DNA from: Candidatus Bathyarchaeota archaeon | GTDB lineage: Archaea > Thermoproteota > Bathyarchaeia > Bathyarchaeales > Bathycorpusculaceae | Assembly (NCBI GenBank): GCA_963715865.1 | Contig: OY970280.1 | Coordinates: forward strand, 1,504,001 to 1,568,000 | DNA: 64,000 bases | Reading direction: 5' to 3' | Shown: positions 14,394-33,908 of the stretch, one piece after another | How positions within the stretch are numbered: the stretch's first letter is position 1 | Layout: every line of letters starts with the position of its first letter | Notes under the pieces: generated by a model | The model's input: the letters and a program-made list of their open reading frames with translations, nothing else | What the model was told of the DNA's origin: nothing | Databases searched by the model: none | Made by a program: the position numbers and the translations under genes

Positions 14394-15393
14394 CTATTTT
14401 CCAGAAAGAATCAATGTGTAAGGGTCGTCGGCAACCTGTGGAAAAGGCGCTTCTTTTCCCGTTTTAATTAGAACGCGTTCTTTATTTTCCGTGAATTCAC
14501 CCAAAAAGCAGGCCGAAAGTCCGTTCTTGCTCAATGTGGCTTTGACTTTTTCTTGAGCTTGAGCATCAACCGCCGCCAAGATTGTGCCTGTTGAAGACAT
14601 CGCCAACACCTGATTATCATTAAACTTAAAGTAATCTTGCAAAGCTAACATTTCCTTGCAAACCGGTATTTTTTCCCAATTCACCCTAAAGCCCACTTTT
14701 GATGCTTCAGCCAACTCGTTTAGCGCTGCTACGAATCCTCCTTCTGTAGCATCATGCATGGCATGGACACCGCTTATTTCAGCCAGTTGCAAGGCTTCCT
14801 TTACGCAACTTTGCATGCGAACCTGATTAGAAAGTTTTTCTTGCTGCTCAGCTCCGAAGAGTTTTTGCGCTAGCGCCTTGTGAGTTAACGAGAAATTTGT
14901 GATTGTTTCTAAACCAAGCGGCTTAGTGCATAATATTAGGTCTCCTGGCTTAGCGTTTCCGGGCGTAATCAACTTTTCTGGTTGTACCGATTCCATAAAC
15001 AGTTGCGACGCCAAGCAAATCTGAAAGGCTATCATACATGCCTGTGTGTCCTCGAACGATAGCTATGTCCAATTCGTCTGCTGCCTCGCATGTTTGCTTC
15101 ATTATTTTTTGGAAAGTTGCTGGTTTAGTTGATTTTGGTCCCAAGAGGTTAATGGTGCAGAATTCTGGTTTGGCTCCGGATAGCGCAACGTCTGAAGCTG
15201 CGTAATTGATTAGTAGCCAACCGAACCATTCTTCTGGGACGCCAGTGCATGGGTCAGTCGCTACTACTACGTACTTGCCATCTAAGAGGTGAACGCCTGA
15301 ATCGTAGCCAACCATGGGCGGAATAATAACTCGCGAATCCTTCTTTATGCAGCTTAAGAGCGTCTTCAGTTCTTTGTTAGGTAGTTTTCCCAT
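14394..15393 (-). CDS. AIR synthase-related (PurM/ThiL/HypE superfamily) protein, frameshift near 14990-14994
   Basis: ATDP, SDVALSGAKP, IVRGHT in the 5' frame; AKPGDLI, AMHDATEGG in the 3' frame. Removing one base gives VYG(S)VQPEKLITP. Confidence 0.85.
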
Positions 15394-15406: not shown

Positions 15407-15964
15407 TTACATGTAAATGTTTAGTGTCTTGCTTTTTTGCAGTAGGAAAATTGCAAATGCACAGATTATAATGCTTGGCACCATGTAGATTGCGTTATAT
15501 GATGCGGAGTAAACGACTGGGCTCATACCTGCTGGTGCGTACTGGGGAAAATAGATGACACCTGAAACGAAGTGAGATATGAAACGGCCTGTCCCACCAA
15601 CAACGACGCCGACAACCGGGCCAACAACTTTAAGTTTTCGGAAGAACCCGGCAAGTCCAAGGCAAGCGAACGCCAATGGATAATCAAGGATAAATTGAGC
15701 AGGATTAACAACGAAAGGCTCAATCGCAAGGTCAACCACGCCAAGCACGGCGCCTGCAAATATGCCTATTTTTGGTCCTCTTCTAAGCGCCAGCCAAAAG
15801 ATAGGCACCATCCCAAGGTTAATTGAGCCCCCTTGAGGCAGGCTGAAGAAGGAGTGGCTAACCAGAGCTAATGCTCCTGCCATTGCAACAAATACAATTA
15901 TTTCTGCAAGTATCTTGGTTGAGAAAATATTATTATTTTTAGTCGGTTCAGTTTGATGTTTCAC
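15407..15964 (-). CDS. thiT: ECF thiamine-specific S component
   Basis: PQGGSINLGMVPI, RRGPKIG, QFILDYPLAF, RFISHFVSGVIYF, YSASYN; lies directly below a TPP aptamer. Confidence 0.9.
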   Translation of the reverse strand: MKHQTEPTKNNNIFSTKILAEIIVFVAMAGALALVSHSFFSLPQGGSINLGMVPIFWLALRRGPKIGIFAGAVLGVVDLAIEPFVVNPAQFILDYPLAFACLGLAGFFRKLKVVGPVVGVVVGGTGRFISHFVSGVIYFPQYAPAGMSPVVYSASYNAIYMVPSIIICAFAIFLLQKSKTLNIYM

Positions 15965-15969
15965 TTTTT

Positions 15970-16066
15970 TTCCCTCCGCCAGTATTATCTGGTTCAGGTT
16001 CTAAGGGTCGACAGCACATTAGCCGTCCTCTCAGCCGGGTCATTTTCCCAGCTCCCCGAGACCTTA
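15970..16066 (-). ncRNA. TPP riboswitch aptamer
   Basis: Minus strand: CGGGGAGC-(P3 hairpin)-GCTGAGAG-(GACGGC/GCTGTC hairpin)-GACCCTTAGAACCTGAACCAGATAATACTGGCGGAGGGA. P2-P5 pair well; P1 looks weak. Confidence 0.88.
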
Positions 16067-16129
16067 TTGATGGGATAATGTTTTTAGGTTATATTTTAGT
16101 TTTCCTACCGTCAACAATAACGAGTAGGA

Positions 16130-18602
16130 TTGATTAACATGCAGCCTATGCCTAAAGAATACAACTTTGCAGAAATAGAACGAAAATGGCAGCAGAAATG
16201 GGAAGAAATGGGTATCTACCATTACGACTGGAACGACAAAAAACGCGTTCCCTACAGCATAGACACTCCACCGCCCTATCCGTCAGGCGAATTGCACATG
16301 GGCAACGTTTTGAACTGGACCTACTTTGACATGGTAGCACGATACAAACGCATGCAAGGCTTCAACGTGCTCTTCCCGCAAGGCTGGGACTGCCATGGCT
16401 TAGGCATAGAAATCCAAGTTGAAAAAACACATAACATACGCAAACGTGACGTTCCGCCAGACCAGTTCCGCAAGTGGTGCATGGAGCTGGTGGAAAAATA
16501 CATTGCCATGATGAAAGAAGGCATTCTCAAGCTGGGCTGCAGCATAGATTGGACAACAGAGTACCGCACAATGGATCCAGATTACTGGAGACGCACGCAA
16601 TTAAGCTTCATTTTGCTCTACAAAAAAGGCTACATGTACCAGGGCACGCACCCAGTGAACTGGTGCCCCAGAGACGAAACCGCCATCGCGGATGCTGAAG
16701 TAGATTATCAGAAACGCGAAGGCATACTGCATTACATCCGTTTCCCATTCGAGGGCACAGGCGAGTACGCGTTAATCGCAACTTCCAGACCAGAGTTTAT
16801 TCCTGCATGCGTCGCCATCGAAGTCAATCCCAAATGACGAGCGATACAGCAAGTACGTTGGCAAAAAAATCGTTGTACCAATAGTCAACCGTTCCGTGAC
16901 GGTCATCGCTGACGAATGCGTTGATCCCGCCTTTGGCACTGGAGTAGTCATGATATGCACCTACGGCGACAAAGAAGACGTTAAAACAGTCATCAAGCAC
17001 AAGCTTCCCGTCATAATGCTTCTCACCGAAAATGGACGCATTAACGAGAACGGCGGCAAATACGCTGGCTTAACAATAAACCAAGCACGAGCAGCCATAG
17101 TTGAAGACCTCACGGCAGCTGGGTTGCTTGAGAAAACCGAGAAAATCATGCAGGAAGTAGGCGTTTGTGACCGCTGCAAGACTCACGTGGAAATCCTTGA
17201 GCGAAAACAATGGTTCATGAACACCCGCAAATTAACCGACGCCGTAGAAAAGACAGCGAACGAGATAGCTTGGTATCCTGATTACATGAAAAACCGCTTA
17301 ATCGACTGGGCAAAATCGCTCGATTGGGACTGGGTAATAAGCCGCCAACGTCTTTTTGCCACACCGATTCCAGTTTGGTACTGCAAAAACTGCGGCGAGC
17401 TAATCCTAGCCGAAGAGGACTGGGTTCCAATAGACCCAAAACTGGAGAACCCACGCATAAACAAGTGCCCAAAATGCGGCGGCAAAGAGTTCACTGGCGA
17501 ACAAGACGTTTTCGACACCTGGATGGATTCATCAATAACATGCGCTGTTCATGCTGGCTGGCCTGACAGGGCAGATTGGAAGCATCTTTTCCCAGCGGAC
17601 GTTCATCCCTCAGGCACCGATATAATCAGGACTTGGGCGTATTACTTGATGGTTCGGCACTTGGCGCTTTTTGATGAGAAGCCGTTCAAGAGTTGTCTTA
17701 TCAACGGCATGGTTCTAGGTTCTGATGGCAGAAAGATGAGCAAATCGCTGAAGAATTATGCTGCTGCGCCTGAAGTGCTAAACAAGAACGGAGCCGATGC
17801 TACTCGCCAATGGGCCGCTGGTGGTGGAGCAACAGGCTCCGACATTCCGTATCGTGCTCAGGATGTGGAGTATGGCAGGCGTTTCTTGGTTAAGTTGTGG
17901 AATGTTTCAGGTTTCACGAGTAAACTCTTAGCTGACTATGAGCCTAGTGTACAGGCTGATTTGGAGCTTCAGCCGCTAGACAAGTGGATTATTAGCAAAG
18001 CCGAAAACTTAACAAAAAAGGTGACCGAGGCTTTTGAAAAATGCCAGTTTAACATTGCTGTTGAAGATATCCGAAATTTCACATGGCACGTTTTCTGCGA
18101 CTATTACGTTGAAGCAGTGAAAGATAGGCTTTACAATCCTGACTTGCATGGTCAAGCGAAACGGTTGGCAGCTCAGTACACACTCTACGAGGTTCTCTAC
18201 CGCGTGTTGCAGTTGCTGGCGCCTGTTACTCCACATTTGACTGAAGAAATTTACCAGCACATGTTTGCAGAAAACAAGGGCTTTGAAAGCTTGCAGATTT
18301 CGCCCTGGCCCCAGTTCAATTCGGCACTTGTGAATGAAGAAGCAGAGAAGAACGGTGACTTGATTATTGCTGTTATCAGCGAAGTGCGGCATGATAAGGC
18401 AGAGAAGAAGTTGCCTCTTAATGCGCCAGTTAAAAACTTAATCATTTACGCTGGCAGTGATGAGAACGCGAAAGTTATCCATTCAGGCAGCGCAGACATT
18501 GCTGGAACCTTAAAGGTTGCAAACATCCAAGTTCTCCCTGAAAAGCGGTCTGAAGGACGTCAAGTCAGTCCTTATGACGTTTACATCAGAGCGGAATATT
18601 AA
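16130..18602 (+). CDS. valS: Valine--tRNA ligase, split by a +1 frameshift at 16832-16834
   Basis: DTPPPYPSGELHMGN (HIGH), GWDCHG, FGTG, DWVISRQR and KMSKS. CCC-AAA-TGA would read CCC-AAT-GAC without one A. Confidence 0.95.
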
Positions 18603-30721: not shown

Positions 30722-31392
30722 GCCGTCACTATCCCCGCTGGTTTCTCACGACTTTTCTGTTTGCTTTGTTTGAGTAGTTGGATTACTTCTTCGTCGGTAG
30801 TTTGGTTAAAATCCGTGTAGAATTGTCCTATTGCCTGGAAATATTCAGGAGCGTAGAGACAAACGACTCGGTCTGCTTGTTTTTTTAACTCTTTAATGGT
30901 TGAAGGTGGACCAACTGGAACGGCAACGGTAACGGTGCTTGCGCCTCTGTTTTTGACTGAAGCCAAGGCTGCTTTCATAGTTGAGCCTGTAGCTATCCCG
31001 TCATCCACAATAACTACGTCGAGACCTTTTAAGCTGGGATAAGGCTCGTTTTGCCTGTATAATTTTAGCCTGCGCTCGATTTCATGTTTTTGCCGCTCGC
31101 TTTCCGCCTTAATGTAATCCCTTTGGACTCCTATGTACGTGATTAGGTTGTCGTCGAGGATTATGGTTCCGTCCTCGGTCATGGCGCCTATGGCTAATTC
31201 AGGATTGTCAGGTGCTCCAATTTTTCGTGGAATAATAACGTCTAAGGGAAGGCTGAGCGCTTTCGCGATTTCGTAGCCTACAACTACGCCGCCTCTTGGA
31301 ATTGCTAAAACAATCCCGTTTTTTCCATCAAAATCCCTCATGGCTGAAGCCAAGCGTTTTCCAGCTTCAACTCTATCCGAAAAATAAGCCAT
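30718..31392 (-). CDS. Phosphoribosyltransferase-family protein
   Basis: AIPRGGVVV, RKIGAPDNPELAIGA, VIVDDGIATGST PRPP loop; overlaps the hydrolase start by 4 nt. Confidence 0.88.
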   Translation of the reverse strand: MAYFSDRVEAGKRLASAMRDFDGKNGIVLAIPRGGVVVGYEIAKALSLPLDVIIPRKIGAPDNPELAIGAMTEDGTIILDDNLITYIGVQRDYIKAESERQKHEIERRLKLYRQNEPYPSLKGLDVVIVDDGIATGSTMKAALASVKNRGASTVTVAVPVGPPSTIKELKKQADRVVCLYAPEYFQAIGQFYTDFNQTTDEEVIQLLKQSKQKSREKPAGIVTA

Positions 31393-31505
31393 TTTTTTAT
31401 TCCTCAGAAAATTTACTGTTTGATATAGAGTAGCTTGTAATATAAAAAGTGGTTGACATCATCATTGAGGGGTATACCCCAAAAGAGCACTTGAATTTTG
31501 ACGTG

Positions 31506-33908
31506 TTAGGTTTTCTTGGTTAGCCACAGGTTCTCCTTGTCGAAGGCGAATTCGCTGAACCTTTGAATATAGTAGAGTCTTAGGTATTCGCCTGCAAACT
31601 TTGCTTGGAATGGAAGGTCTTGCGGTGAAAGACGCTTCTTCCTTCTAAGTTGTTCTTTGATGGCGGCTTCCGCAGTTGGATAGTTGAGTAGAAACTCTTT
31701 TCGCTCATTATAAACCGCCAACGTCTGCATTGTCTCATCCACGTAAGACAGGTACTTGGGCAAGTTTTCCATTATTTGGTTAATCGTGCAGTTCGATGGG
31801 TTTGCGAGAGTTTCAGTTGCTTTCTTTAGGCGTTCCCGCAAGGTGGAGTTTTTCTCCCACAAATAATCCTTTGTCGGCAATAAACGCTCAATTGCCTCTT
31901 CCTCGCTAATCAGTTCAGCATACAGCATTGAGAGCACGTCTTTGGAAATCCCGAGGAAAGATTGAATGTCATCTTTCAACGCAATAACATCTACAATGTT
32001 TAGCTGGTCTTTCTCAGCTTTCTTCTCCGTTGCCACTTTCATTGCCTCAGCTTTCTTGGCATGCTCCAGCACTTTGGGCAGGTTTTCACCAAAAATCGGC
32101 GGCAAAACTTCGCTTTCACCACTCAAATTGGCTATTGGCGCCAAGGAGCTTTTAAGATACTTCATCGACGCCAGGATTTCAGCGCCATACTGCTTCTTCC
32201 AATTATTCAATGAACTGTACAATGCTTCTATAGCAATCCATGGTGCCTCTTTTTCCCCTAGCTTTTGCATCGTGAACTCTATCGCTCGGCTTTTCTCTGG
32301 AAGAGTCGGATCATACAAAGGCCTAATAATCCCGTAAATTGGCTCAGCAACAGTAACAACATCCTTGGCAAGAACCCTTCCTCCGTCTAAGACTTGTTTG
32401 ATAGCTTCTATTCTTGCTTCAAGAGGCATTTCTTTTTGGAAACCAGCGTTCACTGTGGATTTGATGTCTAAGCCGCTGTCTTTGAGTTTTCCTACCCAGT
32501 TAGAAAATTCGCAATTAGCAAAAATCTGGTACTCTGACAGTATAATGTTGAGTTCTGATTCTAAACCGTCGATGTCTTTGCTTAACTTTTCTAACTCCTC
32601 AAATTTCTGGTTCAATTCTGACAGTTCATAAAGCCGCATCTCAAACTTTCTCAGCAGGTCTTCAAGCGAGTCTTTGATAACTAACATTTTACCTTCAGGA
32701 GAACTCACAACCACAGGAATATTCTCCTTAACATTATTCAGTTGGCCCTCAAAAACCTGCAACCGACCCATAAGCGCTTGAGCTTTCTCAGTAATCTCTG
32801 AAGTTGTCGCCGTTTGTTTAGGAGTATAATCAATGAAGGCTGCAGGAAGCGTAAATAAAAGCGTAGCCAAAGTACCAAACACCATCGTTGCTGGGCTAAC
32901 ATTTGCGGTAAAAGCTAATCCATATTGAAGAGCCCCAAGCATGATAAAGAAGAACGCTGCGGCACAAGTAGCCATGAAAGATGGAATAATCCTATCGGCA
33001 AACGACTTGCTACCTTCTGGCACCAACAGCCTTGCTAGGAAAACAAGCGCCAGAGAAAGCCCTGCCACAATGACGATAAACATCAGCATGCCAGGAACAG
33101 AATCACGATACTGTGTTAACGCATCCGAAAGGGTGCGCCCAGCGAAATTAGGTTGCCATGTAAGCTGGCCAGTAATTGCATAAACAGCTTGGGACGCGTC
33201 ATACAATCGAAACTGACTCATAGAAGAACCAAGGTCTGCCAAAATCTGGTTCAAAGGCACAAAAACAGGCGGACTTGAACCAGGTGCAAGCCACCAGTCA
33301 GGCCTAGCAATTTTTGCAACTGTATAATTGAAGTACTGAACGATCTGAAGGGGGACCGTAATTAAAACGTAATACACGATGGTTAAGGCAACTTGTTTTT
33401 TAAAGAATACCGCTGAAGCCAAAATCAATGGAATAGCCAAGAAATAGGTTGAAGTAGAGAAGAGACTTGTGACGGCTAACAGGCCTAAATCAATGGCAAG
33501 AGCGCTCTTGTAGCGGTGAAAAACTATGGGTAAAACGATAAACAAAGTCATCCAGACAACAAGTATTGCTATGCGAACCTGTATTTCCCCGAGGAAGGAA
33601 ATAAAGTACAATTCGGCCAAATGATACATCAAGCCTAACCCAATAACAGCGCCACCAATAGGCATCCCAAACCTCGGATCCTTAAAAGTTACAAACGCCA
33701 CTAGAACCGCAAGTAAAATTGGCACGGGTTGAGGAAATAGCGGCAAAAAAGACATCCCTAATGCCATAGCGGCAAGCGTTACAAAAAAAGTGATGATCTT
33801 AAGCGGCGCTGGCTCAGAAATACGCTGTTGCTCTTGTTTTTCCTTGCTTTTCTGCTTCCTTTCCTTATACCATGAGCGTACACCAGAAAAATTAATTGCC
33901 TTCTTCAA
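31506..33908 (-). CDS. Polytopic membrane protein (~9 TM) with ~440-aa C-terminal coiled-coil region
   Basis: 800-aa ORF; hydrophobic N-terminal ~360 aa, then a heptad-rich charged helical region. Confidence 0.8.
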   Translation of the reverse strand: MKKAINFSGVRSWYKERKQKSKEKQEQQRISEPAPLKIITFFVTLAAMALGMSFLPLFPQPVPILLAVLVAFVTFKDPRFGMPIGGAVIGLGLMYHLAELYFISFLGEIQVRIAILVVWMTLFIVLPIVFHRYKSALAIDLGLLAVTSLFSTSTYFLAIPLILASAVFFKKQVALTIVYYVLITVPLQIVQYFNYTVAKIARPDWWLAPGSSPPVFVPLNQILADLGSSMSQFRLYDASQAVYAITGQLTWQPNFAGRTLSDALTQYRDSVPGMLMFIVIVAGLSLALVFLARLLVPEGSKSFADRIIPSFMATCAAAFFFIMLGALQYGLAFTANVSPATMVFGTLATLLFTLPAAFIDYTPKQTATTSEITEKAQALMGRLQVFEGQLNNVKENIPVVVSSPEGKMLVIKDSLEDLLRKFEMRLYELSELNQKFEELEKLSKDIDGLESELNIILSEYQIFANCEFSNWVGKLKDSGLDIKSTVNAGFQKEMPLEARIEAIKQVLDGGRVLAKDVVTVAEPIYGIIRPLYDPTLPEKSRAIEFTMQKLGEKEAPWIAIEALYSSLNNWKKQYGAEILASMKYLKSSLAPIANLSGESEVLPPIFGENLPKVLEHAKKAEAMKVATEKKAEKDQLNIVDVIALKDDIQSFLGISKDVLSMLYAELISEEEAIERLLPTKDYLWEKNSTLRERLKKATETLANPSNCTINQIMENLPKYLSYVDETMQTLAVYNERKEFLLNYPTAEAAIKEQLRRKKRLSPQDLPFQAKFAGEYLRLYYIQRFSEFAFDKENLWLTKKT

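Follow-up and report, generated by a model that had tools for sequence, protein, structure and literature searches.

The window analysed here, a stretch of 64,000 nucleotides from the single contig (OY970280.1) of a Bathyarchaeia genome, contains on its minus strand a thiT gene, which is directly preceded by a TPP riboswitch aptamer and a candidate promoter (Table 1). The assignment of ThiT is supported by the NCBIfam equivalog TIGR02357 (147.1 bits, cut-off 108.45), and two genes for EcfT (PF02361) are encoded elsewhere, at genome positions 31097-31711 and 1597031-1597657. Downstream of thiT lies a PurM-like gene, which is probably co-transcribed with it and whose 13-nt distance to thiT is conserved. 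In close relatives this gene is a single ORF of 332 aa, which in the window is frameshifted by a one-base insertion near 14992. Divergent to thiT a class I aminoacyl-tRNA synthetase gene is found (16130-18602), which also carries a one-base insertion, near 16828. In comparison to the 94% identical relative L021 these two insertions split each gene into two ORFs; they may be assembly consensus errors or mark real pseudogenes. Paralogues of the PurM-like gene are located at genome positions 1644050-1645006 (32% identity), 1665155-1666012 and 102915-103787.

Table 1. Features of the thiT locus, given in positions of the window and in the order in which they are read on the minus strand.
Feature	Position	Strand	Remarks
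Candidate promoter: BRE-like GGAAAAC (16105-16099) and TATA-like TAAAATATAA (16098-16089)	16089..16105	minus	centre about 36 nt before P2
5' leader AAUAAGGUCU, about 10 nt	16059..16068	minus	holds the residual P1 5' strand; start placed from the TATA-like box
TPP riboswitch aptamer	15954..16068	minus	RF00059, model positions 1-105 of 105
J2/4 and P4 5' strand, AGAACCU	15996..16002	minus	CCU 15998-15996 pairs with AGG 15975-15973 (cmscan alignment)
P5 3' strand, CUGG	15982-15979	minus	
J5/4	C15978, G15977	minus	
P4 3' strand, Rfam register	G15976, A15975, G15974, G15973	minus	G15976 mismatched; A15975, G15974 and G15973 pair with U15996, C15997 and C15998, respectively
Shine-Dalgarno sequence, GGAGG	15973..15977	minus	J5/4 G, G-G mismatch position and P4 AGG
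Linker	G15972, A15971, then six A residues	minus	followed by GTG at 15964
thiT GTG start codon	15962..15964	minus	ATG, GTG or TTG in the same place in relatives
thiT, ECF transporter thiamine-specific S component, 185 aa	15407..15964	minus	Pfam Thia_YuaJ (PF09515), E 3e-46
PurM/ThiL-fold (AIR-synthase-related) gene	14394..15393	minus	13 nt past thiT; below every equivalog cut-off

The window was scanned with cmscan against Rfam 15, and three matches were above threshold. The RF00059 match covers the full length of the model and scores 61.2 bits, which is higher than the gathering score of 54.3 (E 1.5e-9). No second RF00059 match was found in the genome, which consists of a single contig of 2,354,843 bases and is 97.9% complete. 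The original prediction, which had placed a complete TPP aptamer core directly upstream of thiT, therefore holds, and its coordinates are correct; the strand, which it had not given, is the minus strand. Every strongly conserved segment of the model (CUGAGA, ACCC, GAACCUGA, UAAUAC, GGCG and AGGGAA) agrees with the window copy. The ligand-contacting junctions CUGAGA, ACCUGA and GCG-N-AGGGA are all present, as is the L5 loop UAAUA, and these elements are invariant or nearly so across 49 relatives. The pairs flagged by cmscan as non-standard comprise four of the five P1 positions, the outermost P2 pair, the lone pair between P2 and P3, one pair in the next helix and the outer P4 pair, which is G-G here versus G-U in the consensus.

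The fold is also recovered independently of the Rfam model. RNAalifold applied to 49 sequences without that model yielded P2, P3, P3a, P4 and P5, and no P1. In the resulting structure 97.7% of the cells are standard pairs, and nine of the 23 pairs have changed on both sides and are thus compensatory. Sliding the 3' partner by one to three columns leaves only 29-55% of the cells paired. The covariation score was not reached in any of 500 shuffles, a result which, due to the relatedness of the 49 sequences, does not translate into a probability. Taken together the comparison points clearly to structural selection on the aptamer. A chance match or a relic, which had to be considered as well, was rejected on the E-value and the covariation, and a genuine TPP riboswitch in front of thiT in a Bathyarchaeia genome is confirmed at the level of sequence comparison.

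The window copy has practically no P1, the helix by which the three-way junction is normally closed. In the Rfam register GGUCU (16063-16059) stands opposite AAAAA (15970-15966), and only two isolated U-A pairs of five are formed; counted by hand three positions are non-standard, versus the four flagged by cmscan. The best duplex between the 5' flank (14 nt) and the 3' flank (18 nt) reaches only -1.1 kcal/mol. A weak P1 had been raised as a concern from the beginning, and both the flagged pairs and the flank duplex bear this out. A hidden P1, formed with upstream U-runs or with the early coding region, was looked for as well, and nothing conserved was found.

Because the register of P1 varies among the sequences, P1 was scored for each sequence by helix and by duplex in a set of 49 riboswitches from the genus, the order and the class. 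In riboswitches with a start codon 5-11 nt past AGG the flank duplex ranges from -0.6 to -5.5 kcal/mol; the exception is L102, in which an intact P1 of 10 bp contains the TTG start. Those with a start 74-158 nt downstream mostly possess a strong P1 (-6.7 to -16 kcal/mol), with weaker values for L104, L106, L113 and L114. The relation between P1 strength and start distance thus divides the riboswitches of the class into two architectures, a compact, P1-poor one before S-component genes and a classical one with P1 and a long spacer. The weak P1 of the window copy is not a defect of a single copy, and the P1-poor form amounts to a modest variant of this lineage. The long-spacer loci (L103-L107, L110, L111, L113, L114, L118, L123 and L127) precede thiC, thiD-thiN, cytX or thiW. 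One of them, L113 (~1606-1680, before thiC), has an ATG 7 nt past GGAGGGA, while the ThiC ORF starts 86 nt past AGG; this ATG may belong to a short upstream ORF, or the start may be mis-set.

At the 3' end of the aptamer the original prediction had equated GGAGGGA (15977-15971) with the 3' strand of P4 and at the same time with the Shine-Dalgarno sequence of thiT. The latter part stands, since the Shine-Dalgarno sequence indeed lies inside the 3' conserved region of the aptamer. The former has to be corrected: the heptamer is not simply a P4 strand but runs from the J5/4 G through the G-G mismatch and the AGG of the three P4 pairs to the GA linker. None of the P4 pairs varies among the 49 sequences. 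GGAGG is separated from the GTG by an A-rich spacer of 8 nt, so that the last G of GGAGG is at -9. When the sequences before 5,480 candidate starts of the genome were examined, GGAGG was found to end most often between -8 and -11, where each position has 17-26 counts and the background is about 3 (~6-fold enrichment), and the 3' end of the 16S rRNA reads GAUCACCUCCU, ending in CCUCCU. With its end at -9 the GGAGG of the riboswitch falls within this peak and is therefore exactly at the ribosome-binding-site position of this organism, which agrees with the predicted location a few nucleotides before the start. The GTG itself is supported by the start codons which relatives have at that position.

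This geometry is widely conserved. The tail CUGGCGGAGGGA is invariant in all 20 loci of the genus and the order, and in 19 of them the start codon of a long ORF is found 6-11 nt past AGG; in the remaining one, L008, the ORF is broken. Of 43 thiT loci from Bathyarchaeia, 41 have the aptamer core immediately upstream, and the other two have no upstream sequence. In most of the 41 an ATG, GTG or TTG is found a few nucleotides past AGGGA. In L027, L036, L046 and L049 an ATT, ACG or ATA is found ~6-9 nt past AGGGA, where the relatives start; these may be non-canonical starts or sequencing errors. Neither a T-run nor a terminator or sequestor hairpin was found between aptamer and start codon in the window sequence. 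A separate expression platform is thus lacking, as had been predicted, since a Shine-Dalgarno sequence inside the aptamer leaves no space for one.

The 48 related loci with enough upstream sequence likewise have an AT-rich box between -40 and -31 from P2, which corresponds to the TATA-like element of the candidate promoter. In archaea the TATA box and the transcription start are separated by a usual spacing, and together with the position of the box this spacing would put the start of the transcript near 16068 and leave a leader of about 10 nt. Such a start would argue against transcription beginning inside the aptamer. The upstream motif UCCCAUC, which in an RNAfold structure of the RNA from 16075 pairs with GGAGGGA as a candidate anti-Shine-Dalgarno sequence, was also considered. 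It was rejected, because the TATA-like box makes it likely that the UCCC is untranscribed and because the motif is not general.

RF00059 matches are common in the relatives of the organism. Of 24 other species of the genus 22 have a match, and so do seven of 16 genomes of other families of the order. For the class Bathyarchaeia 151 genomes were sampled, of which 93 have a match; these represent 48 of 79 genera, and a single genome can contain as many as four copies. The genes downstream of the riboswitches of the class code for ThiT, ThiW, an ECF-S-like protein, ThiC, an archaeal ThiD-ThiN fusion and CytX, which is a classical thiamine regulon. With about 60% of the sampled genomes of the class and several thiamine genes the riboswitch is not an oddity of this genome.

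In L004 (961-1509) and L019 (1604-2149) a compact riboswitch precedes the gene for a 181-182 aa ECF S-component-like protein, which is not ThiT; it has a weak match to Pfam ECF-ribofla_trS, is assigned to no NCBIfam family and may transport thiamine or a thiamine precursor. The contigs L022, L039 and L040, which are labelled Acidoferrum, Methanocella and Limnocylindrales, encode a Bathyarchaeia-type ThiT (71-84% identity) behind the same riboswitch tail and are probably mis-binned Bathyarchaeia contigs. Outside Bathyarchaeia, within the same phylum, 20 genomes from four families contain RF00059 matches (151 sampled); in these families 8 of 13, 8 of 15, 2 of 5 and 2 of 3 genomes are positive (among G185-G306). 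In the other families of the phylum no RF00059 matches were found, for example in 0 of 19 and 0 of 13 genomes.

The genome offers few other components of thiamine metabolism. ThiC, ThiD, ThiN and thiamine pyrophosphokinase (TPK) were not found in the 97.9%-complete single-contig assembly, and tblastn of the genome with Bathyarchaeial ThiC, ThiD-ThiN, ThiW, CytX and the ECF-S-like protein gave nothing. The search for ThiE revealed only a sub-threshold match, and all that was obtained for Thi4 were short matches to the N-terminal part of the profile (positions 11-73 of 235), of which one barely exceeded the cut-off. By its gene content the organism appears to be a thiamine auxotroph which depends on imported thiamine. 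Since thiC, thiD, thiN, TPK and a convincing thiE or thi4 are missing, riboswitch feedback on import is the only thiamine regulation which is visible in the genome. As TPK, ThiD and ThiN are missing, the PurM-like gene is a candidate for the phosphorylation of imported thiamine. The genome also contains no match to the ThiN domain (PF10120), and therefore a ThiR-type regulator was not found.

The arrangement at the 3' end suggests how the riboswitch would work. We consider it probable, at roughly three chances in four, that the RNA is a functional TPP-sensing riboswitch which represses the translation of thiT by direct translation attenuation, and this repression probably extends to the co-transcribed PurM-like gene. 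The mRNA would probably start about 10 nt before P2. Its ribosome-binding site GGAGG would be provided by the G of the pyrophosphate-sensor junction together with the 3' strand of P4, followed after the 8-nt A-rich spacer by the GTG. When TPP is scarce, the P4/P5 arm would be only marginally stable and the small ribosomal subunit could bind. TPP would bridge the P2/P3 and P4/P5 arms, lock P4 and hide the ribosome-binding site. The sequence comparison shows the aptamer with its conservation and covariation, the genes around it, and how this genome uses and spaces its Shine-Dalgarno sequences, whereas we infer the binding of TPP, the transcription start and the action of the control on translation; to our knowledge there is no archaeal TPP riboswitch with a tested mechanism.

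In a nearest-neighbour model of the RNA 16068-15935 opening of the region from the Shine-Dalgarno sequence to the start costs about 3.3 kcal/mol in the ligand-free state, which fits an ON state that TPP could switch off. The P4/P5 hairpin could form even without ligand, which would bear on the size of the regulatory effect. A further point against this reading is that P1, the normal closer of the three-way junction, is by sequence all but lost in the window copy and in most of the 'direct' relatives. The direct occlusion of initiation put forward in the original prediction is thus plausible, as there is no space for a platform, and the earlier interpretation is partly supported: it is largely right but not novel in its mechanism, since the design is already known from bacteria.

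A more elaborate switch, in which the ligand-free RNA adopts a second fold, is possible, though we lean against it. Here the leader AGGUCU (16064-16059) would pair with AGAACCU (16002-15996) and leave GGAGG free; this leader helix would extend P2 and take up the 5' strand of P4, until TPP forces P4 to form and pushes the leader out. In such a switch an 'anti-P4' helix within the aptamer would take the place of the lost P1. The leader helix is present in the RNAfold minimum free energy (MFE) structure of the window RNA, and in the ligand-free model its pair probability is 0.4-0.8, versus about 0.1 for P4, but only about one third of the relatives have it in their MFE structure. Read by eye, nearly all leaders of the order contain AGGU or GUUC at a varying distance from P2; these two motifs are the complements of neighbouring stretches of the invariant GAACCU. 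However, an invariant target means that true covariation cannot be shown, and the AAGG of the leader is possibly a relic of the 5' strand of an ancestral P1, which is intact in L102, or part of the initiator region. In a test with 28 distinct leaders, which were classed as 'direct' by a rough rule that wrongly takes in the strong-P1 loci L103 and L127 and the bacterial locus L062, the leader:target duplex was better than that of shuffled leaders (mean z -0.88, one-sample t p ~1e-4, a value overstated by the relatedness of the sequences). The single sequences are weak, with typically 3-20% of the shuffles doing equally well, and the difference between 'direct' and 'other' leaders is not significant (p 0.09). 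The wider proposition, that P1 was given up, that the RNA is a self-contained two-state translational switch, and that TPP riboswitches rather than ThiR-type proteins are the main thiamine regulators of Bathyarchaeia and some other Thermoproteota, seems rather doubtful to us. We also judge it unlikely that the control acts on the RNA level, by TPP-dependent folding which leads to early termination of the archaeal RNA polymerase or alters 5' end-dependent decay of the thiT mRNA. The aptamer lies at the extreme 5' end of the predicted transcript, where its folding could influence 5'-to-3' decay, and the 74-158 nt between aptamer and start in other Bathyarchaeial TPP riboswitches indicate that other mechanisms exist in the class. 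Nevertheless, the A-rich spacer before the start is 8 nt long and contains neither an oligo-T tract nor a hairpin, and the conserved, precise distance of Shine-Dalgarno sequence and start codon is what translational control predicts and what control on the RNA level would not need.

That riboswitch and thiT came recently from a bacterium as one cassette, or are bacterial DNA mis-assembled into the contig, and are unadapted to archaeal expression, is very improbable, even though ThiT is mainly a Bacillota family. When one genome per species was searched by tblastn, the closest ThiT loci were all from Candidatus Bathyarchaeia or Bathyarchaeota MAGs (97-45% identity) from peat, bog and soil (SPRUCE, Stordalen, Microflora Danica), which agrees with the Bathyarchaeia-like host assumed from the sequence. 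The next matches are from Synergistaceae and Bacillota with 33-49% identity. A quick maximum-likelihood analysis of 68 ThiT sequences gave an unrooted tree with a weakly supported backbone; under a midpoint root the Bathyarchaeial proteins are found among sequences of Bacillota and Synergistota, where they form two well-supported clades of their own (SH-aLRT 99 and 95). The contig is a 2.35 Mb chromosome, and the 16S rRNA which the Rfam scan identified in the window is archaeal. The unit is present not only in the 22 of 24 species of the genus but in several orders of the class, TPP riboswitches of the class also precede thiC, thiD-thiN, thiW and cytX, an archaeal-type TATA box lies upstream at a fixed distance, and the riboswitches of the bacterial relatives differ in having P1 and an expression platform. 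The class-wide spread, the archaeal promoter and the differing architecture in bacterial relatives thus make a recent transfer of the whole cassette unlikely. Of the transfer considered earlier the recent, single version is therefore disfavoured; an old bacterial origin of thiT itself is possible from the tree. Direct translation attenuation by a resident archaeal riboswitch is the reading we prefer.

The Bathyarchaeia are among the most abundant archaeal groups of sediment and peat, and an apparent auxotroph with a single visible control of vitamin B1 bears on the cross-feeding of vitamins in peat communities. The compact, P1-poor design is a minimal natural test case for the question how much of the TPP aptamer regulation needs, and likewise for the way in which translational riboswitches operate with archaeal ribosomes. 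If the two-state reading were true, the locus would give archaea their first tractable model of translational control by a riboswitch.

The ThiR paper of Rodionov et al. 2017 is said to assign archaeal TPP riboswitches mainly to Thermoplasmatales. Published surveys describe archaea as sparing in their use of riboswitches, and the counts of McCown et al. 2017 list six in Crenarchaeota and one each in Korarchaeota and Thaumarchaeota (PMC5473149). Our literature search for a link between riboswitches and Bathyarchaeia or Bathyarchaeota found no relevant report. In comparison to the published counts we found, which list very few riboswitches in these archaea of TACK-type phyla, the taxonomic point of the original prediction holds. 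The spread is under-reported, though any Rfam scan of MAGs would show it. With one to four TPP riboswitches in about 60% of the sampled Bathyarchaeia genomes and five kinds of thiamine genes, RNA-based vitamin sensing looks normal in this class. The TPP riboswitches reported from Thermoplasmatales, which are found before genes for multi-transmembrane transporters (10.1101/538918), resemble the one described here in being archaeal and in preceding putative thiamine transporters. They belong to another phylum and control another transporter family, in contrast to the ECF-type ThiT of the window.

The E. coli thiM riboswitch, for which a crystal structure is available (2GDI), is of the translational type. 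It shares P2-P5, the CUGAGA pyrimidine-sensor and the GCG/ACCUGA pyrophosphate-sensor junctions with the window copy, which by analogy would likewise be an OFF switch acting on translation initiation. In contrast to the window copy, where P1 is missing and the Shine-Dalgarno sequence is part of P4 and J5/4, thiM forms a stable P1, and its Shine-Dalgarno sequence is a separate one, which an anti-Shine-Dalgarno sequence sequesters in a platform downstream. Bacterial thiT leaders have in common with the Bathyarchaeial ones that a TPP riboswitch controls the same transporter family. The RSthiT leader of Lactococcus lactis comprises 158 nt (PMC8862789), and the thiT loci of Synergistaceae and Clostridia which we examined possess P1, a platform of 44-73 nt between aptamer and start, and a separate Shine-Dalgarno sequence or hairpin. 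Some of these bacterial platforms form CCCCUCC...GGAGG hairpins.

The closest parallel is the direct translation attenuation which Barrick and Breaker 2007 described as common in bacteria (PMC2258182). In the direct type of TPP riboswitches, most often found in Actinobacteria and Cyanobacteria, the purine-rich conserved 3' region substitutes for the ribosome-binding site (PMC2258182). The same design had thus already been reported by these authors, and the mechanism proposed here is not new. Both share the aptamer family, the ligand core, a ribosome-binding site taken from CG-N-AGGGA, a start codon within a few nucleotides and the lack of a platform. The window copy differs from the bacterial direct type in its Bathyarchaeia host, the archaeal TATA promoter, the leader of about 10 nt and the degenerate P1. 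In addition, the consensus U before AGG is replaced by G, which yields a perfect GGAGG with the loss of one P4 pair.
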